This document shows, one piece after another, positions 4,526 through 33,063 of a DNA stretch of 34,419 nucleotides. The stretch lies in IMG/VR virus record IMGVR_UViG_2671180847_000009. One strand, given 5' to 3'. Below the pieces are notes generated by a model, which made no database searches, was not told the origin of the DNA, and saw only the letters and a list, made by a program, of their open reading frames with translations. Numbering within the stretch: position 1 is the stretch's first letter; every line of letters begins with the position of its first letter. The position numbers and the translations under genes are program-made. The stretch comes from a virus (Duplodnaviria; Heunggongvirae; Uroviricota; Caudoviricetes).

Positions 4526-5097
4526 TCTGACTCTCCAGCCTGAAAAGCGCGGATGTCGGCAAGATTATTAAGGCTATCCAGCACGTCCTTCATCTGTCGC
4601 TGACGGCGATAAATCTCGTCATTGCGATCGACCTGCGCCTGCGCCATTGCTGCCGCCAGTTCTTCCAGTTCCGGCATCGACAGTTTCACCTGTTGATTAT
4701 CGGCATCACCCCACGCAAGGGTGGTTCGTGCCGTATCGGATTTCGCCGCCATTACTACCGGATAAAGGCGGGCCAGTGAGTCGGGGCCAGCGTTCCATGT
4801 GCGGCCATTCCATTCGAACATGAACGGCTGCGCTTCCTGTTCTGTGCGCCATGCCTCAATTTCTCGTTTTTTAGCGTCCTTTGCTGCTTCCAGCATTTCA
4901 GGCGTAACAGTGAACGGGGCGATTTCGCCCCATTTGCCGCTTTGCAGTTCCTGCCAGATTTGCTGGCCTGTCGTCGCGGTGTCTTCTGGCGTGGCTGTGT
5001 ACGGAAGTGGGTCTTCCATTCCCTCAAACAGCACGTCGCAGTCAATCGCACCGGATTCGGTATAACGGGGACTGGTAATCTCTTTTATCTGCATCAT
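4522..5097 (-). CDS. Tail fibre assembly protein (chaperone), copy 2
   Basis: 191 aa; N-terminal region and acidic C-terminus typical of Tfa/gpG-type chaperones; directly follows a tail-fibre gene. Confidence 0.6.
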   Translation of the reverse strand: MMQIKEITSPRYTESGAIDCDVLFEGMEDPLPYTATPEDTATTGQQIWQELQSGKWGEIAPFTVTPEMLEAAKDAKKREIEAWRTEQEAQPFMFEWNGRTWNAGPDSLARLYPVVMAAKSDTARTTLAWGDADNQQVKLSMPELEELAAAMAQAQVDRNDEIYRRQRQMKDVLDSLNNLADIRAFQAGESE

Positions 5098-6389
5098 GCA
5101 ACCCTCACAAACAAAGAAACTAAGCCCCGGTTATAAAACTTAATATCCGGGCCGCCAGATAAAGCGACATATGTACCAGGCAGGGTATCCCCGTAGACAA
5201 ATGACCTCGCAGCAGCACTAAATCCTGACGTGCGATACTCCGCTTCAAAGACCACCTGCCGGAGTCTTGAGCCTGACACGCCTTGTGCACGAAGTAACGT
5301 AACCTCACTGCTGCCATCGTCCGGTAGGTATGCAGCAAGAACCAGGCCTCCGGGGAACGGAGGACGCTTTGATGTATTTTCTGTTGCATACAACAGTTGC
5401 ATCAGGCGCTTACGTGACCAGAACAACCGCGACCATGCTTTTGGCAGGTCTGACGGACGCATGGATTTTTTAACCAGTACCTGATATTTCGCAGGACCTT
5501 CACCGAATCCCCCACTGTATTCTGCATCACCATGAAACGTTATCCACCGACGCGCTTCTGCTTCAATACCGCCAGAGTCAATTCCGTATCGTATGTCTAT
5601 ATCCACAAGTCCACGGAAATAAGGTTGCCCCATGTCATACGCAATGATGGGATTATACGAAGTGCTACTCCCTTCAGATTGTGTTACCGCGTAACGTCCG
5701 GGGGTGACTTCGAACACCCATTTCAGAAATTCGGCGGGGCCATTTTGCGCGCTGAAATACACGACTTCCGACGAAGAGAATAAATGCCCGTATCCGAATG
5801 CACCGGGTAACGCCAGACGGCCTGCGGTGCGGTCGTAGATATCGCTCTGAACATCAAGCAAAGCAGCACCTTTCAACCCCAGATTGTCTCGGGATTCCTG
5901 TTGCGCCTCTTCCCCCTCTGCTGCAATTTCTGACAGTCGGTTAGGAGCTTTCAGCATTGATTTCAGCTCGGGGGTAATATCCACCTGCCAGCTCTGTGGA
6001 GGAACGGTAATTTGCGCAGCCTGAGCAATGCCGCTGTATATAATCGTGAAATTACGAATAAGTGACTCGCCAGTATGTTTCTGGCGAACAGGGGTTTTTA
6101 TTACGCCGCACAGTGTTCTGCTGGCCTGATGGATGAGGCAAATCCAGTCATAGCTGAATGCACAGCCATCAGGAACAACTGCGCTACACACAATATTGTT
6201 CGGGTTTAACTGGCCATAGGTCAGTTCATTCACAGCATATGTGATTTTTTCTTCCGGAACGGTATTATCTTCGCGCGTTGGTTCCCGCTCCATCAGAGCA
6301 AAAATAATAGCGTCAGGGCGTGCAGGTAAATTACTGGCTGCGCATTCAGCAACCCACTTTTCAAATGCTTTCGTCAACAGTGCGCTCAT
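5094..6389 (-). CDS. Tail fibre protein, second paralogue (431 aa)
   Basis: N-terminal ~150 aa shares architecture with the N-terminus of the 584-aa fibre (W-x-A-x-x-x-S/N-x-x-P-A-R-P-D, ...L-I-R-N/T-F); C-terminus is different. Confidence 0.55.
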   Translation of the reverse strand: MSALLTKAFEKWVAECAASNLPARPDAIIFALMEREPTREDNTVPEEKITYAVNELTYGQLNPNNIVCSAVVPDGCAFSYDWICLIHQASRTLCGVIKTPVRQKHTGESLIRNFTIIYSGIAQAAQITVPPQSWQVDITPELKSMLKAPNRLSEIAAEGEEAQQESRDNLGLKGAALLDVQSDIYDRTAGRLALPGAFGYGHLFSSSEVVYFSAQNGPAEFLKWVFEVTPGRYAVTQSEGSSTSYNPIIAYDMGQPYFRGLVDIDIRYGIDSGGIEAEARRWITFHGDAEYSGGFGEGPAKYQVLVKKSMRPSDLPKAWSRLFWSRKRLMQLLYATENTSKRPPFPGGLVLAAYLPDDGSSEVTLLRAQGVSGSRLRQVVFEAEYRTSGFSAAARSFVYGDTLPGTYVALSGGPDIKFYNRGLVSLFVRVA

Positions 6390-6395
6390 TACTTC

Positions 6396-6950
6396 TTAAT
6401 TCTCGCTAATGTTCTGCGGTAATTCTGGCCATACAATCGCGGCATACGATGCTTTATCTGTAACCTGACTGAAAGTCATCTGCTGTAGTGCTTTTGCATA
6501 AATACGGCATGCTTTCAGTTTTTCCCTGTCTTCGTCACTGATTAATCCCAGCAGCAGGTCTTTTTCCCATTCGCTGGTCATGATGCTGGCCCGTTGTAAC
6601 AGGGCATCGCGTTCATCTTCCGCTTTAAGTTTGTAGTCGAAGATAAAATTGCCATCGCGGTAGAACCAGTAACCCGACGCCTCAATGCGACGATTGGCGG
6701 TAATATCCGGTAGCTCAATCACGCTTTTATTTTCCGGGCAGATTGAGGTGATGTCTTTTCCGACCCAGACCACTTCGCCGGTTTCAACATAAATAACTTT
6801 CAGGGTGTCTGGCAGAAATTTTTCCTGGGCTTCGTGCCATTCCTGGCCATCCTCTGAGAACAACCACAATAAAAATTTATGCTGTCGCGCCAGCTGGTAT
6901 TGCTCAATTGTTTTAGGGTTTTGTACCGTAAGATTTTTTAAGTGCATCAT
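6396..6950 (-). CDS. Tail fibre assembly protein (chaperone), copy 1
   Basis: 184 aa, follows the long fibre gene; Tfa-like sequence features. Confidence 0.6.
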   Translation of the reverse strand: MMHLKNLTVQNPKTIEQYQLARQHKFLLWLFSEDGQEWHEAQEKFLPDTLKVIYVETGEVVWVGKDITSICPENKSVIELPDITANRRIEASGYWFYRDGNFIFDYKLKAEDERDALLQRASIMTSEWEKDLLLGLISDEDREKLKACRIYAKALQQMTFSQVTDKASYAAIVWPELPQNISEN

Positions 6951-6952
6951 AA

Positions 6953-8707
6953 TTACAAACTCGCTACATTCCGCCAGACGCCATTAATCAGAACCTGCAC
7001 CGGGCGGGCATTGGCCCAGTCCATACTTTCACCACCATCAAGACCGCTGATAAGGTGACCTGATGGTGCGTTCCCGCCACGCCCAATACCAATGGCACTG
7101 CCCAGACGCACATCCTGTACACCGCCTGTTTTGGTCTGATAGCGGGCATCAAAGTTTCCGTAGTCTGACGGTGTTACCCGTCCTGAAACATTCACTGCCC
7201 GGTTACTTTGTAACGCGCCATTCTGAAAACGGAATACGTGCTGACCATTGGCATAAACATCCAGCAGGCCGTCACCATTCTGTTTCAGGCCGGTATCGTT
7301 ATCCCCGAAAGCAATTGAGTTTCCGCCCAGCGCGTTCTGAACGCCGATACCTAATGCACCGTTTACTTTCGAACCGCCGCCAACAGATACCGGGTGAGAC
7401 ATCGAGACTTCACCCGTCCGCAGGTTAATGCTGAATGGTCGCAGGGGGCCAATATCGCCGTTTTCACCCTGATTTTCCTGTGTGGGAATAAGATGCAGGC
7501 ACTCTTCAGAGCGACGAAAAATCAGGCCAAAAGCTTCGTTGAAAATCCTCAGTGCATTAACGCCACGGATTTTCAGCTCCCCGGTCATGGTGTCGCCAGC
7601 GCGTTGAACGGCGCTTTCAGCTTTATCAACGGTGGGTTTCAGTCCGACGTTTTCAATAAACAGCGGTTTATTGGGAATGTCGCTGCCGTTGCGATTTTTC
7701 GCAAGACGTGCGTTGGCGTTATCCATTGCGATTTTTACCGCTTTTGACGTGGCGGCGCGGTCTTCTGCATCGCTGTCGGTGGCGTTGCTGTACTGCGCAA
7801 AGCCTTTTTCGGTCAGCGTGGCATCCGGGTGTCTGCGGGATTTTTCGTGTTCTGCCAGCGCGTTGCTTTGCTCTTCGTCGGGCGTCTGTGGGCGTAAATC
7901 CTGTGGGCCACCTGCTGTCAGTTTTGCAAGTGGCGCGACAAAGTGTTGGAAACCGTTCCCGTCTGTATAGGGCGCGTGTTCCTTGCGAGCGCAGAACGTA
8001 AAAACGGTGCTCCATTCGCCGGTAACAAATCCCTGCCAGCTTGCATCAATCCAGAGGGTATCCCCGACCGCAGCCGGCAGGCTGTAAGGTTCGCGCAGGC
8101 TGACGCGCAGACCTCCCACATACCCGATGCCGGCGGCAACAGTGGCGGTACCATCCTGATAGCTGACCTGAAAACCATCCCCCAGAAAAGCGGCTTCACC
8201 GTAGTGATCAAACGCCAGCAGCCGGCGGGCTTCATCCATTCCCGCAAGACGGGCAGTGAAATCAATCTGCCAGACATCAGCACTGACATCGATATGCATT
8301 GCTGCTGCAGCGCCGTCAAACTCCATGGAAAATGTGCGGATCAGGTTGTTTCCCTGCACGCCGTTCGCTGTTTTAATTTTTTGCTGACGAGGTGTGTGTG
8401 CAATCATGCAGAGCACGCCGCTTTCTTCGTTCAGCAGACCGATCCAGTTGTATTCGAAGTCGCCGACTGTCGTGTCCAGAATGATGGAAAACGCGGTCGC
8501 GTTCGGCGACAGGAGGCCGTACTGGGTGACCGGCGCACGATACTGAATCATGGATTCATCAGGGAGTATCTCATCGCGGGGGATCTCTGCGGATTCATCC
8601 TGTCCCGGAATATATGCAAAAACAAATGTATCCGGGCGCGCAGGTTTTCCACTGATGATTTGATTTGCGCACCAGTGTTCGTACTGTTCAGTAATAATCG
8701 TGCTCAT
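6953..8707 (-). CDS. Tail fibre protein (584 aa, P2 gpH-like)
   Basis: Conserved phage tail-collar N-terminus; Gly-rich C-terminal region typical of fibre tips; followed by a Tfa gene. Confidence 0.65.
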   Translation of the reverse strand: MSTIITEQYEHWCANQIISGKPARPDTFVFAYIPGQDESAEIPRDEILPDESMIQYRAPVTQYGLLSPNATAFSIILDTTVGDFEYNWIGLLNEESGVLCMIAHTPRQQKIKTANGVQGNNLIRTFSMEFDGAAAAMHIDVSADVWQIDFTARLAGMDEARRLLAFDHYGEAAFLGDGFQVSYQDGTATVAAGIGYVGGLRVSLREPYSLPAAVGDTLWIDASWQGFVTGEWSTVFTFCARKEHAPYTDGNGFQHFVAPLAKLTAGGPQDLRPQTPDEEQSNALAEHEKSRRHPDATLTEKGFAQYSNATDSDAEDRAATSKAVKIAMDNANARLAKNRNGSDIPNKPLFIENVGLKPTVDKAESAVQRAGDTMTGELKIRGVNALRIFNEAFGLIFRRSEECLHLIPTQENQGENGDIGPLRPFSINLRTGEVSMSHPVSVGGGSKVNGALGIGVQNALGGNSIAFGDNDTGLKQNGDGLLDVYANGQHVFRFQNGALQSNRAVNVSGRVTPSDYGNFDARYQTKTGGVQDVRLGSAIGIGRGGNAPSGHLISGLDGGESMDWANARPVQVLINGVWRNVASL

Positions 8708-23736: not shown

Positions 23737-23784
23737 CCCGGAACGGGCGCACAAAGAATTTGCGCACCCGTTCCGGGTTTTCTT
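23737..23784. terminator. Strong hairpin terminator between convergent ogr-like and Rrf2 genes
   Basis: 11-bp stem cccggaacggg/cccgttccggg (23737-23747 / 23767-23777) followed by ttttctt. Confidence 0.6.
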
Positions 23785-24142
23785 ATTCAATGACAGACAA
23801 CTGATAATTTGTGTCTTCCTGCAGGCTGGTTAAAGAAATATTATCCAGTGCAGCCAGAATAACGTGCTGTGTATATAATCCGGAACATTTCATTGCCCGG
23901 ACAATATCACCAACACTGTAATTTTCTTTTGTCGGGATATATCCACCACCCGGGCCGCGTGTGGCTTTTACCAGGCTACTTTCCCGTAAATATCTGAATA
24001 TTTGCTCCAGATATGACAGTGAAACGGTTTCTTTGCTTAATTGCCGGAGCGAGATTGGCTTTCCGGTGTACTGTTTCACAAATTTAATCATTACCATAAC
24101 TGCAACTGATGCACGCTGGCTTCCGGAATTATCTTTCATCAT
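23783..24142 (-). CDS. Rrf2-family transcriptional regulator (119 aa, non-Fe-S type)
   Basis: S-L-S-Y-L-E-Q-I-F-x-x-L-R...R-G-P-G-G-G-Y matches the Rrf2/IscR HTH signature; only one Cys, so no cluster ligands; start at MMKDNS with GGAAG RBS. Confidence 0.7.
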   Translation of the reverse strand: MMKDNSGSQRASVAVMVMIKFVKQYTGKPISLRQLSKETVSLSYLEQIFRYLRESSLVKATRGPGGGYIPTKENYSVGDIVRAMKCSGLYTQHVILAALDNISLTSLQEDTNYQLSVIE

Positions 24143-24153
24143 GATTACTTCCA

Positions 24154-24441
24154 TTAATGGCATAAATTGATGGAGCGGGTCAGTGAATAAAGAGGCAATA
24201 CATTCCATCCCTTAGAGCGCCAGCTGTCTGCAACATCTTTACTTCTTGTTATCGCCGGTATTCCAATAGGATTATTTGCGTGCATCCATACCACTGGCTC
24301 TGCTTCCAGTGATGCAAGTGCGATTTCCAGTGCGATTAACATATTGTGATCGTCTTCATCAAGACCGAACGGGATGTCTTCGCGCCACGATTTAAACTCT
24401 GTGATTTTACGTTGTAACCATTCTTTGGTAATGGTGGACAT
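24154..24441 (-). CDS. Hypothetical protein (95 aa), unknown function
   Basis: Start MSTITKEW at 24441 with AGGAG RBS at spacing 5; ends 11 nt before the Rrf2 start. Confidence 0.45.
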   Translation of the reverse strand: MSTITKEWLQRKITEFKSWREDIPFGLDEDDHNMLIALEIALASLEAEPVVWMHANNPIGIPAITRSKDVADSWRSKGWNVLPLYSLTRSINLCH

Positions 24442-24455
24442 AGTTACTCCTGTTT

Positions 24456-24770
24456 TCACTTCGGGAAAAACGCCTGAATATTCTTTTTCACCTGCTGCAT
24501 ATGGGGGGCGCTGTCTGCTGCTGGTTGCGCCGGTTTTTCAGGCTGTACTGGTAGCGGTGGCATCCGTATTTCGTCTTCTGACCATTCTGCCAGCGAATAC
24601 GCCAACGCGGGGGTGCGTTTTATAAGAGCCAGTCCGGCCAGAAAAGCCGCGCGTTGTGCGCGGCTGCGTTCGGAGGCTGGCAGGCTGTCGAGGTAACTGC
24701 ACGCCTCCCGTTCGCTCTTGACGACGGCGGGCTTCAGATAGAAACTTATCCGTCTGGTTGGTGTCGTCAT
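24456..24770 (-). CDS. parR: ParR/StbB-like partition adaptor (104 aa)
   Basis: Start MTTPTRR (24770) 5 nt after parM stop; segment ISFYLKP...LDSLPASERSRAQRAAFLAGLAL resembles R1 ParR (IAFKLNP...LDSIPQGERSRLNRAALTAGLAL, recalled). Confidence 0.5.
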   Translation of the reverse strand: MTTPTRRISFYLKPAVVKSEREACSYLDSLPASERSRAQRAAFLAGLALIKRTPALAYSLAEWSEDEIRMPPLPVQPEKPAQPAADSAPHMQQVKKNIQAFFPK

Positions 24771-24774
24771 TGAT

Positions 24775-25734
24775 TTACTCCTTGTCCATTGCGTACAGCC
24801 CATTAACCAGAGCAAACTGTGGCACCCCGTCCGCGATGAAAGTCGCATTAACTCCGCAGGCTTCGCGGATAGCGGGTGCCACAATCTCCGCCCCTCCACC
24901 GACAACCATCACCCGCCCGTAACCCGAAAAACCCGCCAGCGCGCGGATCACGCGTTGTTTCAGTGTTTCTTCCTTTTCACGAATAACCGCCATCAGGCTG
25001 GCGTAATGCGCGTCATTGTGGATGTGCTGGCGCAACCAGGCTTCATCATGGCGATGTTCGATAATGGTATTGGCGATGTGGTGACTGGTACGCATACCGT
25101 TGGTGGCCATCACCGACAGCACGGCATCGGCCATCAGGGAAACGCCTACGTGTGGATCGCAAAACACCTGGCTGATACCTGCCAGTTGTCCCTGAACCTT
25201 TGCCACATCCAGCGTGGTTCCGCCCAAATCCACAATCAGCAGGGATTCAAACGGACTCATGTCAGCCAGTGCTTTAAAGCCAGCCGGAATGGATTCAGGC
25301 ATAACCCGTACATTACGGATAGTGAATGCTTCGCCGTTCTGGTATTCCACCGGGCGCATAACGTTTGCTTTTTTGCGGTTGATGTTGGCCATGTCCGGCT
25401 GTGCGTTTGTGTCGAAATACTCGCTCAGTGGCAGGGTGACAACCACATCCACCTCCTGTGGCGTGATGCCTGATTTGACCAGCGCATGATGAATGGCAAT
25501 GACATTCACATCGCTGTACTGGTATTGCGTGTCGGTCGTCTGGACAAAGCGATCGCTGACCGGATCAAAACCATAGCGCACGCCATCAAGCATGTAGTTC
25601 GCGGGCTGCGTGCCACCGAACGGCGCAGACCATTCCGACTTGAAGCTGTTCGGGCTGATGGCGTTGCGGCGTTCGCCGTTCTCAGTCCATGCCAGCTTGA
25701 TGTTGGTGGAGCCGTCGTCGATACAAATTTTCAT
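24775..25734 (-). CDS. parM: ParM/StbA actin-like segregation ATPase (319 aa)
   Basis: N-terminus MKICIDDGSTNIKLAW...ISPNSFK...YSDVNVIAIHHAL...LLIVDLGGTTLD...VMVVGGGAE parallels plasmid R1 ParM (MLVFIDDGSTNIKLQW..., recalled) across the ASKHA phosphate and adenosine motifs. Confidence 0.7.
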   Translation of the reverse strand: MKICIDDGSTNIKLAWTENGERRNAISPNSFKSEWSAPFGGTQPANYMLDGVRYGFDPVSDRFVQTTDTQYQYSDVNVIAIHHALVKSGITPQEVDVVVTLPLSEYFDTNAQPDMANINRKKANVMRPVEYQNGEAFTIRNVRVMPESIPAGFKALADMSPFESLLIVDLGGTTLDVAKVQGQLAGISQVFCDPHVGVSLMADAVLSVMATNGMRTSHHIANTIIEHRHDEAWLRQHIHNDAHYASLMAVIREKEETLKQRVIRALAGFSGYGRVMVVGGGAEIVAPAIREACGVNATFIADGVPQFALVNGLYAMDKE

Positions 25735-28639: not shown

Positions 28640-29005
28640 TTACTTCGTCATTCCGTTCAGAGTGTCACGGCAAACGGCAGCCAGCCGCTGAATCTCCAGC
28701 ACAGTGTCTTCTGTGTCGGCATGGTGGTGTGTGATGCGGATGCTGTCGGCAATCACATCGACGATCGCAGAGGATGGGCGCTGGTAAATGCCAATAACGG
28801 ACGGGATGCCGGCTTCAATGCGGTAAAGCCTGTAATTCCCCTCGTGGCTGTCAATCATGTAGCGACCATCAATAACAATTTTTCCGTCAGCGAGCTGCGG
28901 TACAGGCAGGGATTTCAGGTACATGTCATAACGTTCACGCACGCGAACGGCAAGATCACGCTCTGTGTTGAGCAGGTATTCAAGAAAGTCGTTGGCGAGA
29001 ATCAT
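28640..29005 (-). CDS. Hypothetical protein (121 aa) immediately upstream of gene A
   Basis: AAGAGGA RBS; 6-nt gap to A start; no family recognised (occupies roughly the position of P2 B but shows no recognisable similarity). Confidence 0.4.
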   Translation of the reverse strand: MILANDFLEYLLNTERDLAVRVRERYDMYLKSLPVPQLADGKIVIDGRYMIDSHEGNYRLYRIEAGIPSVIGIYQRPSSAIVDVIADSIRITHHHADTEDTVLEIQRLAAVCRDTLNGMTK

Positions 29006-29077
29006 TGCGGCAATCCTCTTGTTACAGATGTGCGAAGGCCTCCCGCCGCAAGGTGCAGGAAAGGCCCGGAACAGGAA

Positions 29078-29308
29078 TTAATGGAGTTTGTTTTGCTGCT
29101 GGATGAGATCCTGAAGAGACAGGAGGTCTTCCGCCAGATAGCTGAATACAGCGGCGCAGTAGTCGGCTGAAATAGTGCTGTTGAGTCTGTGCAATGTGTT
29201 GGATTGCATGATAAAGGCGATGTGTGCAGCGCGGGTGAGTCTGCGGTCGATTTCAGTCTGGATGTGACGACGCTCCGCGATAGCGCGGTGCTGTTTGCGG
29301 TTTGCCAT
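29078..29308 (-). CDS. Hypothetical protein (76 aa)
   Basis: ATG with AAGAGG RBS; preferred over the overlapping 205-aa ORF in another frame. Confidence 0.4.
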   Translation of the reverse strand: MANRKQHRAIAERRHIQTEIDRRLTRAAHIAFIMQSNTLHRLNSTISADYCAAVFSYLAEDLLSLQDLIQQQNKLH

Positions 29309-29628
29309 GATATGTGGCCTCTTGTAGTAAGTTGTGAAAACTCACCATCCAGAGGTTCCAAGCTCGGGGTGGTGAGACGTACAGGGTTGGAACTACCGGC
29401 TACAAGAGATCCCGGCCCGACCGAAATCGGCCCCGTACGCCCCACCATAATTCGTGTGCGAAAAAGACGTGGCAATACAGTTCGCACAAAAAAACCGCTG
29501 GCGCGGTTGTGCGCTCTTGTAGTCTGCGGGGTTCCAATCCCGGCACCCGTTTTATGAGGTGCAGCGGAAATGTAACCTGACTGATTGCGGCATGGCAAGC
29601 GGTTTTTTTGTGTGTGCATAGTGGTTAC
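29309..29628 (-). promoter_or_regulatory. Structured 320-bp intergenic element inside the early operon (terminator/attenuator-like hairpins, possible promoter or small RNA)
   Basis: No credible ORF; minus-strand RNA contains hairpin CCGC-GCCA-GCGG followed by U7 (plus 29488-29506) flanked by mutually exclusive stems CGCACAA/TTGTGCG and GTGCGAA/TTCGCAC; further long-range complementarity CTCTTGTAG/CTACAAGAG (29320-29328/29401-29409). Confidence 0.3.
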
Positions 29629-30180
29629 TCAGTCCGGTAGCAGTTCGCAAAGCACGGTGTCAGCGGCGGTATATCGTGCGTAAAGCCGGGCGGGAACCCA
29701 TCTTTTAAGGGATATCCCGGCTGTGTCCCGGATGTGCTTCCTGATTTCGCTGAATGTCATCCCCTTCTCATCACGCAGTTCAGTTACCAATTCCACCAGG
29801 TGATCGCTGTATCTGGTTCTGTGGTGGAGTTCCCCGTATTTCCTGAACCGATACCCTCTTTTTCTCAGGTTTAGTTCCACCGTGGATGGCGAGCGCCCCA
29901 ACTCATTCGCGAGTTCCCGGATAGTTTTTGTGTGGCGATTCCTGATGAGCATGCTGAGTTCTTTTGTGCTCAGGTGGGGGCGTTTGGCGTGAATAACCCC
30001 CTGAGAGAGCAAAAGGCGGATGCGACTTCGTATTGCTGACTCGGTTCTCTGAAGGTACTTTGTCAGCTCCGGCGCTGTGTGGGAGTGGTATAAAGTGGCT
30101 AAAAGTTCATCCTCCTGCTGTGTCCATGGTTTTACATGTGCCGGAGCCACACCAGGTGTACCCATTGGTTTGAGTTTCAT
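29629..30180 (-). CDS. Putative DNA-binding protein with tandem HTH-like repeats (183 aa)
   Basis: Three repeats resembling Myb/sigma-70 region-4 type HTH (W-x-x-x-E-D-E-L-L, L-x-x-x-I-R-E-L-A-x-E-L-G-R-S, G-M-T-F-S-E-I-R-K-H-I); AAGGGAG RBS. Confidence 0.4.
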   Translation of the reverse strand: MKLKPMGTPGVAPAHVKPWTQQEDELLATLYHSHTAPELTKYLQRTESAIRSRIRLLLSQGVIHAKRPHLSTKELSMLIRNRHTKTIRELANELGRSPSTVELNLRKRGYRFRKYGELHHRTRYSDHLVELVTELRDEKGMTFSEIRKHIRDTAGISLKRWVPARLYARYTAADTVLCELLPD

Positions 30181-30194
30181 TGTGATTTACTCCC

Positions 30195-30494
30195 TTACTG
30201 GTTAAGGAAAAAATCGAAAACGTTGTCGATGCGTTGCAGCAGCTCCTGCTGCATTGCTTCCGGCGTTTCTGATTCACCTGGTGACTCCAGCGTCGCGCAA
30301 AAATCCTTGATTTCATGATGGAGCGTCAGACGAATGGCAGGAGCCATGGTTCTGGCGTGCTCCAGCTCATCCAGCAGTGCCAGCACGGCAGATGGCGAGA
30401 GCATTGCGCGAAACGCCAGTAATTTTTGATGCGTTGCCATTCGTTGCAGGTCAGTCGCCAGTTCGCGTAGTTCCTGGTGGTTGATGGTGCTCAT
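30195..30494 (-). CDS. Hypothetical small helical protein (99 aa)
   Basis: ORF in early operon, start overlaps upstream gene stop. Confidence 0.4.
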   Translation of the reverse strand: MSTINHQELRELATDLQRMATHQKLLAFRAMLSPSAVLALLDELEHARTMAPAIRLTLHHEIKDFCATLESPGESETPEAMQQELLQRIDNVFDFFLNQ

Positions 30495-30757
30495 GCTCTG
30501 GCTTCCTTCAGTAGCTGGTTAAACATGTGAGTAAGTGGATTGCTACACCCGAACGGCATCGGGTTTACGTGGTAAGAAGCCTGGCCTCCTGCTTTGCGAG
30601 CGCGACCACCTGTGCTGCGGTTTGTTCTGATGACTAAGCCGCCGCGCCAGAGTCGGCGTAACTCAGCATTGATGGCTGTGGTTGGGGTATTCAGTGCTGC
30701 GGCGATTTCTCCGCCGCTACAACCCGGATGGGTAGCGATGTAGTCCAGAATGGTCAT
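30491..30757 (-). CDS. Small winged-helix-like DNA-binding protein (88 aa)
   Basis: Segment GGEIAAALNTPTTAINAELRRLWRGGLV resembles a winged-helix recognition unit; translationally coupled to neighbours. Confidence 0.4.
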   Translation of the reverse strand: MTILDYIATHPGCSGGEIAAALNTPTTAINAELRRLWRGGLVIRTNRSTGGRARKAGGQASYHVNPMPFGCSNPLTHMFNQLLKEARA

Positions 30758-30957
30758 CTGCGTGGCTCCTGTACCTGTCGGATAAGATTCACCCGCTCCA
30801 CGTTGGTGGCGCAGAAGTAAGTGTCGTCAGTGAGATAAATGTGATGCGCGTCAGGTTGCGAACGGTGACGGTCGAGCGTTTTAATCAGCCGTTCGTCAAC
30901 TTCGTATTCACGCCCTCTGGAGGTGAAACGAATGACGGAAAAACGCTTAATTGCCAT
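30754..30957 (-). CDS. Hypothetical protein (67 aa)
   Basis: AAGGGGG RBS upstream of ATG; coupled to downstream gene. Confidence 0.4.
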   Translation of the reverse strand: MAIKRFSVIRFTSRGREYEVDERLIKTLDRHRSQPDAHHIYLTDDTYFCATNVERVNLIRQVQEPRR

Positions 30958-30980
30958 TGCGCCCCCTTTGTCCAGTAACC

Positions 30981-31391
30981 CTATGCGTTAAATACGGTGT
31001 GTTGGGCGTCATCAATGAATGCAACTTGAGAGCGCTCTATCAGGCGGAGATTTGTCAGAATCTCTGACTCCCTTATGGGGTGCGGAGTGATCAGGTATTT
31101 ATCCTGTAATCCGGCGATAATGGTGTATCGCTGTAGCTCCGAGCCAATTGTGTAAATAAGGCGTCCGGTGTTAGATAAATCCAGTCCGGTGATTGGTTGT
31201 GTTCTGAGAACCACCAGTTCAGCATCCTGTTTTGCGATAATTTCGGCTGCTTCTGCCGTGACTCTTGCGACTATCAGTGTGTGGATTGCGACGTCCATAT
31301 GTGCATTTGCCACGGCTTTTTTCGCTACTTCGTTTTCTGTCTTTGAAATTTCTTTCAGTGCTCTGATAATACCTTCTTCTTTTGCGTTCAT
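30981..31391 (-). CDS. Hypothetical protein (136 aa), AT-richer than backbone
   Basis: GGAGAT RBS; no recognisable family; composition by eye differs from flanking phage genes. Confidence 0.4.
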   Translation of the reverse strand: MNAKEEGIIRALKEISKTENEVAKKAVANAHMDVAIHTLIVARVTAEAAEIIAKQDAELVVLRTQPITGLDLSNTGRLIYTIGSELQRYTIIAGLQDKYLITPHPIRESEILTNLRLIERSQVAFIDDAQHTVFNA

Positions 31392-31483
31392 TTTATATCT
31401 CCGTTATTTATGTGTGCGAATACCTCCGCGAATGCGGATGGTTTTCAGGTTTTCGGGTTTAATCTGGTGTTTTATTTAAGCTG

Positions 31484-31597
31484 TTATTCGTCAGTGAAAA
31501 AGCGTTCAATCTTTTTTACTGAATGAATAATTCGCATAATCCCAATGGCGCAGGCCACCGAAATAATCAGAACAAGCCATGAGATAAATATACTCAT
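31484..31597 (-). CDS. Small hydrophobic ORF (37 aa, single predicted transmembrane helix)
   Basis: ATG overlaps the stop of the upstream 80-aa gene (ATGA); peptide MSIFISWLVLIISVACAIGIMRIIHSVKKIERFFTDE; below the ORF-track length cutoff. Confidence 0.35.
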   Translation of the reverse strand: MSIFISWLVLIISVACAIGIMRIIHSVKKIERFFTDE

Positions 31598-31836
31598 GCG
31601 ATATTCCCCAGCTTATACGGTTCAATGCGCTCTCCGCATTCTGCGGCGCAGACGAGTTCGGAAAGCTCGTTAATCGCATCCAAATCGTCAGCGTAAAAAG
31701 CTACGTCATAAAGACTTCTGATAGCCCTCGCTAATGAATCATGGGCTGCGTGTTCAGCGTGGGGGCCTGACGTGTTTAAGCGAAAATGAAAGCGCTCAAG
31801 TGCTTTATTAACGAGAGTTTTGTATTCTTGGTCCAT
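31594..31836 (-). CDS. Hypothetical protein (80 aa)
   Basis: ORF in early operon; no family recognised. Confidence 0.4.
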   Translation of the reverse strand: MDQEYKTLVNKALERFHFRLNTSGPHAEHAAHDSLARAIRSLYDVAFYADDLDAINELSELVCAAECGERIEPYKLGNIA

Positions 31837-31847
31837 TGTAACGCCCT

Positions 31848-32125
31848 TTAATCTGCCTTCTGGATTTCTGCTTTTGAATCCATGCAGATAATTTCGATGT
31901 ATGGTTCATCGCTATTAATCTGACGTGCCTTTTCAGCTTCGCTAATGATTTCTCGTACGGTCTGGTACGGAAGCTCCACAGTCAGGCGCGTACCGTTCAG
32001 ATAAACGTAAGTAGCTGCGTTTTTTCGGATGGAACAACTCCGTCAATGGCTGATGCGCGTAATAACAGTTCACCGCGAAAATCAATAAAACGGAGAAATA
32101 CACCTTGTGCATGCTCTTTGGTCAT
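31848..32125 (-). pseudogene. Gene interrupted at an A6 run: frameshifted ORF (42 aa in frame 0 from MTKEHAQ, continuing in the -1 frame for ~50 more codons)
   Basis: Start ATG 32125 with AGGTG RBS; frame 0 stops at 31997; -1 frame is open from the run of six A (minus strand, plus 32020-32025) to TAA at 31848-31850. One extra A would give a continuous 92-aa ORF. Confidence 0.4.
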
Positions 32126-32135
32126 AAAGCACCTG

Positions 32136-32486
32136 TTATAAATCAGCCTGTTTAATAAAACTTTGCCCGCGAAGCAGACGATCAACCGTGCGAAGTGCTT
32201 CGTATAATGTGAAATCCTGCCTGAACTGATTGTCGCCGTTGCTCAGTGCAAAAATGCGGTTTCCGGTAAATGGGTTGCGCTGGCATCTGTGGACCACGAT
32301 TCCAGCCTTCTCAATCAGCCAGGTGTGTTCACCAATTTGTTTTACGGGATGGCCATCAGGTGTGGCGTGTGTTTCGCTCAGGCTGTAGCGAGAGTTGCTA
32401 CGTGATGCACTGGTAGCGAAACGGTTAGCGTGGCGTTCCGCACCGTTGCGGAAGCGCTGCTGTGAAGAATTGCGCCGTTCCTTCAT
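32136..32486 (-). CDS. Hypothetical protein (116 aa), first gene after cox-like
   Basis: ORF in early operon; Arg/Ser-rich N-terminus; no family recognised. Confidence 0.4.
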   Translation of the reverse strand: MKERRNSSQQRFRNGAERHANRFATSASRSNSRYSLSETHATPDGHPVKQIGEHTWLIEKAGIVVHRCQRNPFTGNRIFALSNGDNQFRQDFTLYEALRTVDRLLRGQSFIKQADL

Positions 32487-32523: not shown

Positions 32524-32949
32524 TTATGCTGCTTTACCGCTGATATTTCTGTTTCGTCTGCCACTTGTTGGCTTAAACAAAAACAGACGGTTTTCCCAGT
32601 CGTGCCATTCCTGAGGTGCGTTTTCGATGAGGCGATCGCATGCTTCATCCCACGCTTTTCTGTTGATGTAGAGTTCAGCGTTTCCGCCTGGTTTGAGAGG
32701 GTCCGCCATATACACCGCAGGTAGCTTTCCTGCTTTGGCCATGCTTACGATGGCGTCAACGGTCTTTCCGATATACATCGCAAATCCTTCTTTTGACAGG
32801 AGATGCGAGGGATTTTCTGAAAGTCGAATCTCTTCACGTTCACGTGCTTTGCGTCCTGTTTTTTGATGCTCCCCTTCTGGCATTTCTGGCAGGTGATCGC
32901 ATCGTGTTCCGCAAAGTGACTCAGGCGCGTTTTGAGTGCTTTCTTGCAT
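32524..32949 (-). CDS. cox: Cox-like excisionase/early repressor with N-terminal extension (141 aa)
   Basis: Segment FAMYIGKTVDAIVSMAKAGKLPAVYMADPLKPGG...AW parallels P2 Cox (FAKLIGKSTGAVRRMIDKGKLPVIDMTDPQSASG...AW); start at second ATG (32949) with GGAGG RBS; divergent from C. Confidence 0.55.
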   Translation of the reverse strand: MQESTQNAPESLCGTRCDHLPEMPEGEHQKTGRKAREREEIRLSENPSHLLSKEGFAMYIGKTVDAIVSMAKAGKLPAVYMADPLKPGGNAELYINRKAWDEACDRLIENAPQEWHDWENRLFLFKPTSGRRNRNISGKAA

Positions 32950-33063
32950 CTGATATCCTCCGCCATTGGTGCTTTTTCTAATTGGCACTAGTTGGAACCA
33001 CTTAGAACATTCTTTTGCTGTTCATATGTGGTGTTAATCTACACATATGTAGGAGTTTGTCAA
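32950..33063. promoter_or_regulatory. Divergent immunity promoter/operator region (Pe/Pc equivalent)
   Basis: 114-bp region between divergent cox-like and C genes; inverted repeat CATATGTG-N11-CACATATG at 33023-33049; TTGCTG -35-like hexamer at 33015-33020. Confidence 0.45.

Follow-up and report, generated by a model that had tools for sequence, protein, structure and literature searches.

Examining the run of small genes downstream of cox in a 34,419-nucleotide stretch of Caudoviricetes DNA (IMG/VR record IMGVR_UViG_2671180847_000009; the whole stretch is called the window here), we found that the locus is the standard small-gene early-operon block of P88-like (Xuanwuvirus, P2-family) Escherichia coli prophages. 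Its genes are real but ordinary, since their families are already catalogued and about a quarter of complete E. coli genomes carry the block (1401 matched of 5426). Several E. coli assemblies match the window itself at 99.98% identity, and in them the prophage adjoins ppa/ytfQ. The synteny cox-DUF4761-92-aa gene-DUF4754-37-aa peptide-o67-winged helix-Ead-like-gpA, compiled from the annotated regions of P88, PhiSM and E. coli FAM21845, the called genes in eight exact-match contigs and a tblastn presence matrix of 80 IMG/VR loci, places the block in Xuanwuvirus, as does a nucleotide identity of 87-93% to P88, P884B11, PhiSM and others over 48-76% of a 3.8-kb query. Moreover, a comparison with 50,697 phage records recovered DUF4754 in 14, all of Xuanwuvirus type, and o67 in these very 14 and no others.

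An earlier note on this DNA had proposed the block as a candidate location for undescribed biology. As a genetic feature it proved to be described: seven of the eight ORFs fall in Pfam or PHROG families (DUF4761, phrog_3800, DUF4754, phrog_9338, phrog_3459, MarR-type winged helix and Ead/Ea22-like), and P88, PhiSM and E. coli prophages in RefSeq, that of FAM21845 among them, are annotated with this order of genes. The exception is o37, which has no Pfam or PHROG family and is annotated in relatives nonetheless. For function the proposal stood, as a literature search found no paper naming DUF4761 or DUF4754, and the small early genes of the block are not taken up in the papers on P88 and PhiSM. 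None of the eight proteins receives a function from an annotated homologue. AlphaFold models, with fold and profile searches, gave no functional analogue, and an NCBIfam scan of the ORFs returned generic HTH noise only. Searches of the PDB by sequence (o116, o136, o88, o99 and o80) and by profile (DUF4761 and o136 alignments) gave no match better than E 0.03; all these matches are implausible.

Table 1. Features of the early block and its surroundings (positions in the window).
Feature	Position	Strand	Description
Pe-like promoter	33036-33063	-	Sigma-70 type, TTGACA-16-TAGATT; consensus scan, 10/12 matches; between the C repressor gene and cox
cox	32524-32949	-	141 aa, Phage_Cox (Pfam PF10743, E 6.6e-28); first operon gene
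o116	32136-32486	-	DUF4761 protein, core gene
o92	31848-32125	-	phrog_3800, broken by frameshift; core gene elsewhere
o80	31594-31836	-	DUF4754 protein, core gene
o37	31484-31597	-	37-aa single-pass membrane peptide (predicted), core gene
Stem-loop	31407-31437	-	Conserved, imperfect; in the 92-nt spacer 3' of o37
o136	30981-31391	-	phrog_9338, accessory cassette gene
o67	30754-30957	-	phrog_3459, core gene
o88	30491-30757	-	Minimal winged HTH, MarR_2/HTH_24 type; mosaic alleles
o99	30195-30494	-	phrog_4144, Ead/Ea22-like; N-terminal half swappable
HTH gene	29629-30180	-	183-aa DNA-binding protein (predicted), HTH_11; phrog_323, E 2e-32; variable slot
isrK-like RNA gene	29488-29562	-	Rfam match
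C4 antisense RNA gene	29365-29452	-	Rfam match

ORFs of 116, about 92 (frameshifted), 80, 37, 136, 67, 88 and 99 codons lie at the positions of Table 1, all on the minus strand, and they are as tightly packed and coupled as first described, with 4-nt ATGA overlaps at o80/o37, o67/o88 and o88/o99 and other gaps of 10-37 nt; the one larger gap is the 92-nt spacer ahead of o136. Each of the eight has a Shine-Dalgarno-like motif 5-10 nt upstream. In IMG/VR relatives, seven ORFs have pN/pS values of 0.17-0.25 and o136 one of 0.49, indicating purifying selection. Judged by these Shine-Dalgarno sites, ATGA overlaps and pN/pS values, the eight ORFs are genuine protein genes, beyond chance. The smallest of them, especially those of 37 and 67 codons, could instead be chance frames in a non-coding or RNA-coding leader, as their shortness and the missing family of o37 might suggest. 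This is hardly credible, because o37 and o67 have pN/pS of 0.25 and 0.19 with many synonymous variants, are kept in all 73 relatives compared, have both Shine-Dalgarno sites and ATGA coupling, and are overlapped by no match in an Rfam scan.

The earlier note counted seven genes while listing eight ORFs. Seven are intact, and the eighth, o92, is a pseudogene in this lineage through an inherited A7-to-A6 deletion. A DNA alignment with P88, FAM21845 and PhiSM, together with A-run lengths in 15 loci, shows that the frame is split by loss of one nucleotide in an A run at 32020-32025, which is A6 here versus A7 or A8 in relatives. Sequencing error is rejected, since the A6 allele is common to at least seven independent assemblies, two of them only 98.7% identical to the window, and the frameshift is thus real. 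Programmed frameshifting or slippage at A6 is, we infer, unlikely as well: the run is of modest length, the shift would have to be +1, and the gene is in a single frame in 77 of 80 relatives. In the IMG/VR loci, o92 is intact in these same proportions (77/80) with a pN/pS of 0.25, and its C-terminal half matches phrog_3800 (E 6e-24).

A scan of genome contigs with DUF4754 gave two loci only, too few for a cross-species comparison, so IMG/VR loci were used instead. Among 73 relatives, which are the closest matches to one query (DUF4761) so that "invariant" is measured inside one lineage, five genes (DUF4761, o92, DUF4754, o37 and o67) are present in nearly all. They stay near-invariant even where the cox/immunity module is swapped, and whatever that module they always accompany a 940-aa gpA replicase. 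This comparison, which the earlier note had advised for finding the variable genes, leaves o136 as the only cassette-like gene, an optional one, and o88 and o99 as mosaic. Arms-race cargo is predicted to be variable; thus, as far as the sequences of these relatives go, the core-gene pattern does not fit it. Such conservation of the core is equally compatible with an essential role in replication or regulation, and also with an anti-host function that has been kept. With o92 broken here, at least one "core" gene can be lost and the prophage still be maintained.

Several proteins carry hints of their activity. DUF4761 (o116), encoded first after cox, has a basic, disordered and conserved N-terminal tail (residues 1-32) that is rich in Arg and His, followed by a five-strand, one-helix domain. 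o80 is a DUF4754 protein (Pfam PF15946, E 7e-48; also phrog_2549), found in 73/73 relatives with a pN/pS of 0.18. In o37, whose start overlaps the o80 stop, residues 3-24 reach a Kyte-Doolittle 19-mer maximum of 2.68 and precede a charged tail; the hydrophobic segment is nearly invariant among relatives, and the P88 annotation reads "membrane protein". o67 belongs to phrog_3459 (E 5e-43), and its homologues are short, with named sources almost all from Escherichia. One profile, phrog_19053, spans both o67 and o88, but a search through the o67 homologues recovered no fusion, and the apparent one annotated in phage 520873 is an unannotated o67. The link between the two genes is therefore that of the ATGA overlap of the o67 stop with the o88 start.

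o88 scores above the cut-offs of PF12802 MarR_2 (31.5 bits; cut-off 27) and PF13412 HTH_24 (22.6; 21.9), and matches phrog_1687 "MarR family regulator" (E 1e-31); on these profile matches it is presumably a DNA-binding regulator. Full-length MarR proteins are typically about 140-160 aa long, with helices at both termini making up the dimer interface. o88 differs from this architecture, having 88 aa of which only the winged-helix core is aligned (residues 2-53), and its score to classic PF01047 MarR (17.9 bits) is below the cut-off of 24.6. In the PDB, the sequences closest to it are small winged helices of the FeoC/YhgG type, with matches that are not significant. The gene is found in 65/73 relatives in two allele classes (about 77% and 98% identity), and is replaced in eight loci.

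o99 belongs to phrog_4144 (E 3e-61), which has no known function, and is present in 59/73 relatives. Its conserved part is a C-terminal module of about 40 aa, which is also carried, in eight loci, by a 72-aa protein with a basic N-terminus. The name "ead/Ea22-like" given by the NCBI pipeline reflects a short coiled-coil motif shared with Pfam PF13935 Ead_Ea22, the family of lambda and P22 Ead/Ea22 (exo-xis region). However, this match covers 27 residues only (22-48), its 23.1 bits are below the cut-off of 27, so that by this threshold o99 falls outside the family, the protein has 99 aa versus a 139-position profile, and the conserved C-terminal module is unrelated.

The earlier placement of the block between cox and the replication genes is right for its upstream side, directly downstream of a cox gene that resembles P2 cox (tblastn E 6e-8) and is annotated as 141 aa in relatives. 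On the other side it does not abut the replication genes, as o99 is separated from gpA by the 183-aa HTH gene, the isrK and C4 RNA genes, a 76-aa epsilon-like gene (o76) and a 121-aa gene. The slot of the HTH gene is variable, being filled in P88 and 23/73 relatives by an SPFH lipoprotein and a small membrane protein. The two RNA genes score well above the Rfam cut-offs (RF01394, 71 bits, cut-off 50; RF01695, 79 bits, cut-off 45), and in ten loci scanned the pair is found in 4/4 with o76 and 0/6 without o76, including P2 and 186. Promoters and terminators were called by consensus, with about as many matches as shuffled sequence would give; among these calls, the Pe-like promoter matches P2 Pe in its position between C and cox, and from the scan and this position it is presumed to be the start of the early transcript carrying the block. 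By the same kind of call, the isrK 3' end (29508-29493) ranks first among the intrinsic terminator-like sites that separate the block from the replication genes, and upstream of it on this strand there is one other, weaker site inside the o116 3' end.

The spacer 3' of o37 folds with -14.3 kcal/mol (z -2.6) and holds a stem-loop with the core TCCGC-AUUC-GCGGA (31425-31438), present in all 73 relatives. Two of its pairs show compensatory C-G to U-A changes, and its cells are paired in 98.5% versus 36-59% in slid controls. It lacks a U tract and belongs to no Rfam family. Substitutions of the same symmetry would also arise in a palindromic DNA operator.

The closest known systems are Escherichia phage P88 (NC_026014, gp04-gp10) and Citrobacter phage PhiSM (Shae_phiSM; OR565851), which have the same order and families from cox through the Ead/Ea22-like gene at 87-93% DNA identity, and the same downstream series of variable slot, isrK/C4, derepression-like gene, 121-aa gene and gpA. 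P88 differs in lacking the o136 cassette, in the content of the variable slot and in its intact 92-aa gene; moreover, the structural genes of the window are not P88-like at the DNA level. More distantly, P2 (cox, orf78, B, orf80-83, A) and 186 (apl, cII, fil, dhr, CP79-84, A) share the architecture: a divergent repressor/cox switch, packed and mostly uncharacterised small genes, and a rolling-circle replicase A downstream. The functional analogy drawn here is with 186 fil and dhr, which lie at comparable positions and shut down division and replication of the host. The genes themselves are different, as the earlier note had judged for P2 orf78-83 and B, and at the level of BLAST and Pfam this was borne out. 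When all ORFs were compared by tblastn (word size 2, E up to 10) with the early regions of P2 and 186, cox alone was recovered, the rest being no better than E 0.3, and no ORF matches the P2/186 early families in Pfam (DUF2732, DksA-like zinc finger, DUF5405, gpB and others). P2 and 186 also have no isrK or C4 RNAs in this region.

Downstream of the block coordinates, the module of isrK-like RNA, C4-like RNA and a small ORF weakly similar to the P4 epsilon "derepression" family (Pfam match of 22.1 bits, below the cut-off of 27) resembles the P4 left operon and P1 immI, which have a seqA/IsrK-like RNA, a CI/C4 RNA and then an antirepressor or epsilon. IsrK has been equated with seqA, and C4 with the CI RNA of P4 (PMC3632133). 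In contrast to P4, the module here lies inside a P2-type operon, ahead of a P2-type gpA and not a P4 alpha primase.

On balance, the block is probably the stretch nearest the promoter in the Pe operon of a P88-like prophage of E. coli (Xuanwuvirus, Peduoviridae), and it probably encodes early lytic-cycle modulators rather than arms-race cargo. It would occupy the position of P2 orf78-B-orf80-83 with an unrelated, lineage-specific gene set, and its eight ORFs would be co-transcribed with cox once the C repressor is lifted, several of them translationally coupled. The products would then be made before transcription passes the isrK/C4 module and terminator, ahead of the epsilon-like and replication genes. 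They may act as early regulators and host modulators: the o67/o88 pair as a small DNA-binding regulator, o37 as a peptide of the inner membrane whose target belongs to the host membrane or to host division, and DUF4761, DUF4754 and o92 as small proteins binding host or phage partners. The functional hints behind these assignments are the MarR_2/HTH_24 scores of o88, the hydrophobic segment of o37, and the basic disordered tail and folded domain of DUF4761.

The suggestion of the earlier note, that such genes serve anti-defence or superinfection exclusion, does not suit the block as a whole: it predicts variable cargo, whereas five of the eight genes are near-invariant, and all genes other than o136 are conserved or mosaic and not cassette-like. 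PADLOC protein models, which describe defence systems only, matched none of seven ORFs, and o88 had one marginal match (E 0.008) to the winged-helix part of a CARF model. Moreover, the documented defence hotspot of P2-like phages is elsewhere, between gpA and gpQ (PMC9122126). Realistically, conflict cargo would be o136 only, which would be expressed from the early transcript and would either disarm a defence of the host or of a prophage or keep out competitors. The protein is predicted to consist of an N-terminal helical hairpin and a small C-terminal beta domain, and the variable hairpin would be the interaction surface. This gene is a discrete cassette of about 440 nt with its own ribosome-binding site, inserted just 3' of the conserved stem-loop in 30/73 relatives at 50-99% identity and restricted to Escherichia and close relatives. 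It evolves fast, with the highest pN/pS of the block and a peak of 0.65 in the hairpin, its N-terminal alleles are mosaic, the E. albertii versions have tandem repeats, and the family is tiny (25 clusters in 1.84 billion representatives). Yet pN/pS stays below 1, and a structure search found no o136 analogue among known inhibitors. We therefore regard a conflict role as unlikely, even for o136.

Less likely still is that the core consists of essential lineage-specific lytic genes, supplying what P2 and 186 get from B, CII or host factors. One version makes DUF4761 an N-type antiterminator, whose tail would bind the stem-loop on the nascent early RNA and allow read-through of the isrK terminator into the gpA region. 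The constant company of the five core genes and gpA agrees with an essential role, as do, for this version, the place of DUF4761 after cox, its conserved disordered tail, the predicted intrinsic terminator upstream of the replication genes, and a conserved stem-loop with compensatory changes. However, the tail is only moderately arginine-rich, the sequence of DUF4761 resembles that of no N family, the hairpin has a single copy only and no boxA-like element was seen beside it, and the operator reading would explain the same substitutions. The hairpin and DUF4761 are also found in 16 loci without o76, of which three were scanned and all have neither isrK nor C4. Furthermore, o92 is tolerated as a pseudogene, and the 186 annotation lists its corresponding small early genes as non-essential. 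It is likewise doubtful, to about the degree of the conflict role, that o136 is an undescribed conflict protein (anti-defence or inter-phage exclusion, with the hairpin as specificity surface) and that DUF4761 and the stem-loop form a new antitermination or RNA-binding device gating the isrK/C4-controlled replication genes.

The finding itself adds little, since this early region, from a frequent type of E. coli prophage, is annotated already. What it offers in practice is a map for study of which genes are core, which are mosaic and which is a true cassette, in a block whose core genes without assigned function sit in so large a share of E. coli genomes. New biology is likeliest at o136 and the conserved stem-loop, and the relatives P88 and PhiSM are culturable, both plaquing on K-12 (PMC6456863).

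Comparing the small early genes downstream of cox with profile databases and related prophages, we found that this block is already known as a set of annotated families of unassigned function in a widespread prophage type. Existing Pfam or PHROG families cover every ORF except the 37-codon one (o37; ORFs are named by codon count), and NCBIfam and PADLOC scans of the ORFs gave nothing further. Annotations of phage P88, Citrobacter phage PhiSM, and RefSeq E. coli chromosomes list the genes in this same order, and 1401 of 5426 complete E. coli genomes match the 3.8-kb region. In a set of 50,697 phage records, DUF4754 (o80) and o67 are confined to the same 14 Xuanwuvirus-type records. The early regions of P2 and 186 share only cox with the block by tblastn, and the earlier note was correct that no ORF matches P2 orf78-83 or B. 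What it observed holds, and its interpretation has partial support; the families are already annotated, with function unassigned, in a common prophage type. A literature search for DUF4761 (o116) and DUF4754 found no paper mentioning them, and the papers on P88 and PhiSM are silent on the small early genes.

The eight ORFs proposed from sequence were borne out in position and length, on the minus strand from cox to 30195, as were their tight packing and coupling: stop and start codons overlap as ATGA at o80/o37, o67/o88, and o88/o99, the remaining intergenic gaps are 10-37 nt except for a single 92-nt spacer ahead of o136, and a Shine-Dalgarno-like motif precedes all eight starts. These ORFs are real genes. 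Among orthologues from 80 related IMG/VR loci, fetched by the DUF4761 protein, pooled pN/pS is 0.17-0.25 in seven ORFs, o37 included, and 0.49 in o136. The frameshift noticed in o92 is also real; in alignments to P88, E. coli FAM21845, and PhiSM, the break falls within a homopolymer that is A6 here (32020-32025), A7 in close relatives, and A8 in P88, and the frame is whole in 77/80 relatives. A read error is ruled out by the presence of A6 in at least seven independent assemblies. Because these include two only 98.7% identical to the window, besides five at 99.96-99.98%, o92 is an inherited pseudogene allele.

Features of the early region and the gpA-gpQ interval, with presence among 73 IMG/VR loci spanning DUF4761 to gpA (the P2-type replicase)
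Feature	Coordinates	Strand	Description	Loci
Pe-like early promoter	33063-33036	-	between C repressor gene and cox	
cox	32524-32949	-	141 aa, matching annotation in relatives	24/73 (window's type)
o116	32136-32486	-	DUF4761 (Pfam, E 9e-68), phrog_2492	73/73 (by selection)
o92	31848-32125	-	split ORF; phrog_3800	71/73
o80	31594-31836	-	DUF4754 (Pfam, E 7e-48), phrog_2549	73/73
o37	31484-31597	-	no Pfam or PHROG profile; labelled membrane protein in P88	73/73
Stem-loop	31407-31437	-	imperfect; in 92-nt spacer after o37, o136 cassette immediately 3'	
o136	30981-31391	-	phrog_9338	30/73
o67	30754-30957	-	phrog_3459	73/73
o88	30491-30757	-	MarR_2 and HTH_24 (Pfam) over cut-offs, phrog_1687	65/73
o99	30195-30494	-	phrog_4144; Ead_Ea22 (Pfam) sub-threshold	59/73
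183-aa HTH gene	29629-30180	-	phrog_323; variable slot between Ead-like gene and isrK	
isrK-like RNA	29488-29562	-	over Rfam gathering score	
C4 antisense RNA	29365-29452	-	over Rfam gathering score	
o76 (76-aa ORF)	29078-29308	-	weak similarity to P4 epsilon 'derepression' family	
121-aa ORF			after o76, next gene gpA	
ParM	24775-25734	-	actin-like segregation ATPase; gpA-gpQ interval	
StbB/ParR-like	24456-24905	-	'plasmid stability' protein; gpA-gpQ interval	
Rrf2-type	23783-24208	-	winged-helix regulator; gpA-gpQ interval	

Comparative genomics, suggested as a check for variable genes, separates five near-constant genes from the o136 cassette and an o88/o99 mosaic. In eight loci, o88 and o99 are both exchanged for one 72-aa protein that carries o99's conserved C-terminal module (~40 residues) behind a basic N-terminus. 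Since cox of the window's type occurs in a minority of loci, the immunity module is swapped around a constant block.

The block is best explained as the early accessory region that is standard for P88-like prophages and specific to their lineage. The earlier note had raised host takeover, anti-defence, or superinfection exclusion; arms-race cargo is disfavored because five genes are invariant across swapped immunity modules, a pattern that fits better with conserved functions in early lytic development or in host takeover. The 186 genes fil and dhr offer an analogy: one candidate role is that of a small DNA-binding regulator, o88 probably together with o67, and another is that of a membrane peptide. 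In the almost invariant o37 peptide, a strong hydrophobic segment of 22 residues precedes a charged tail. A fusion link between o67 and o88 hinted by phrog_19053 could not be confirmed. An anti-defence or exclusion role is plausible for o136 only, a discrete ~440-nt cassette whose insertion point, by comparison with P88, lies precisely where a conserved spacer element meets the o67 ribosome-binding site. Its N-terminal alleles are mosaic, with pN/pS of 0.65 in the N-terminal versus 0.36 in the C-terminal domain. An exhaustive profile search found only 25 family members among 1.84 billion cluster representatives, and homologues with a named source (41-96% identity) are nearly all from Escherichia/Shigella, with one from Citrobacter.

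The block and the replication genes are not adjacent; the HTH gene, isrK, C4, o76, and the 121-aa ORF come, in that order, before gpA. In the region scanned, no intrinsic terminator-like site on this strand is stronger than the isrK 3' end, and thus the small-gene block would make up the stretch of the early transcript ahead of an RNA-controlled checkpoint; upstream of 29508 there is only one other, weaker site, within the o116 3' end. IsrK and C4 have been equated with the P4 immunity seqA and CI RNAs, respectively (PMC3632133). Among 10 loci scanned, the isrK/C4 pair is present in all four o76 carriers and 0/6 loci without o76, including P2 and 186. Together they look like a P4/P1-type RNA immunity/antirepressor module grafted onto a P2-type phage. 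The variable slot holds the HTH gene in this prophage and PhiSM. In P88 and 23/73 relatives it holds an SPFH/Band-7 lipoprotein together with a membrane protein of 67 aa, and in most others it is without cargo. Public assemblies call a 205-aa protein at 29002-29619 (-) with a Phage_ASH match (PF10554, E 3e-7). Both RNA genes overlap the part that matches, and the translation is low-complexity and Ser/Thr/Pro/Arg-rich. RNA genes may have been translated in this call, and possibly in part of the Phage_ASH family too.

The spacer stem-loop, with the core TCCGC-AUUC-GCGGA (31425-31438), is present in 73/73 relatives. Compensatory C-G to U-A changes occur at two of its pairs, the paired fraction of cells is 98.5% versus 36-59% in slid controls, and the spacer fold has a z of -2.6. 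Lengthening the stem added no covariation, and the stem-loop has no U tract and matched no Rfam family. It could serve either as an RNA element or as a palindromic operator. The DUF4761 model has a basic tail (residues 1-32), disordered though sequence-conserved, and a five-strand, one-helix domain (pLDDT 85-90) with no analogue in PDB or BFVD; sequence and profile searches of PDB with this and other proteins of the block were empty. More speculatively, the tail is a putative ligand of the stem-loop, governing read-through of the isrK terminator. Within the block, only o136 and the stem-loop hold some potential for new biology.

The host DNA flanking identical prophages matches E. coli ytfQ-ppa at 100%, placing the window as an E. 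coli prophage integrated beside ppa. A 226-kb contig (NZ_JBQPOM010000071.1) from a genome labelled as the Firmicute Vagococcus sp. WN89Y also carries this enterobacterial prophage block, with 86-91% identity; the assembly is probably mislabelled or contaminated. The prophage is a mosaic (noted over window 1-25000): at the DNA level, similarity to P88 is confined to its early region and to the first ~900 bases, which match the P88 record's end, annotated 'MokW-like host killing'; the tail-fibre region (~4600-7650) has 91-93% identity to phiP27, Rac-SA53, and even an Actinobacillus phage. The gpA-gpQ interval (23783-25734, minus strand) is a documented defence hotspot of P2-like phages; its three genes had no PADLOC match. 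A plasmid-type partition system inside an integrated P2-family prophage merits attention.
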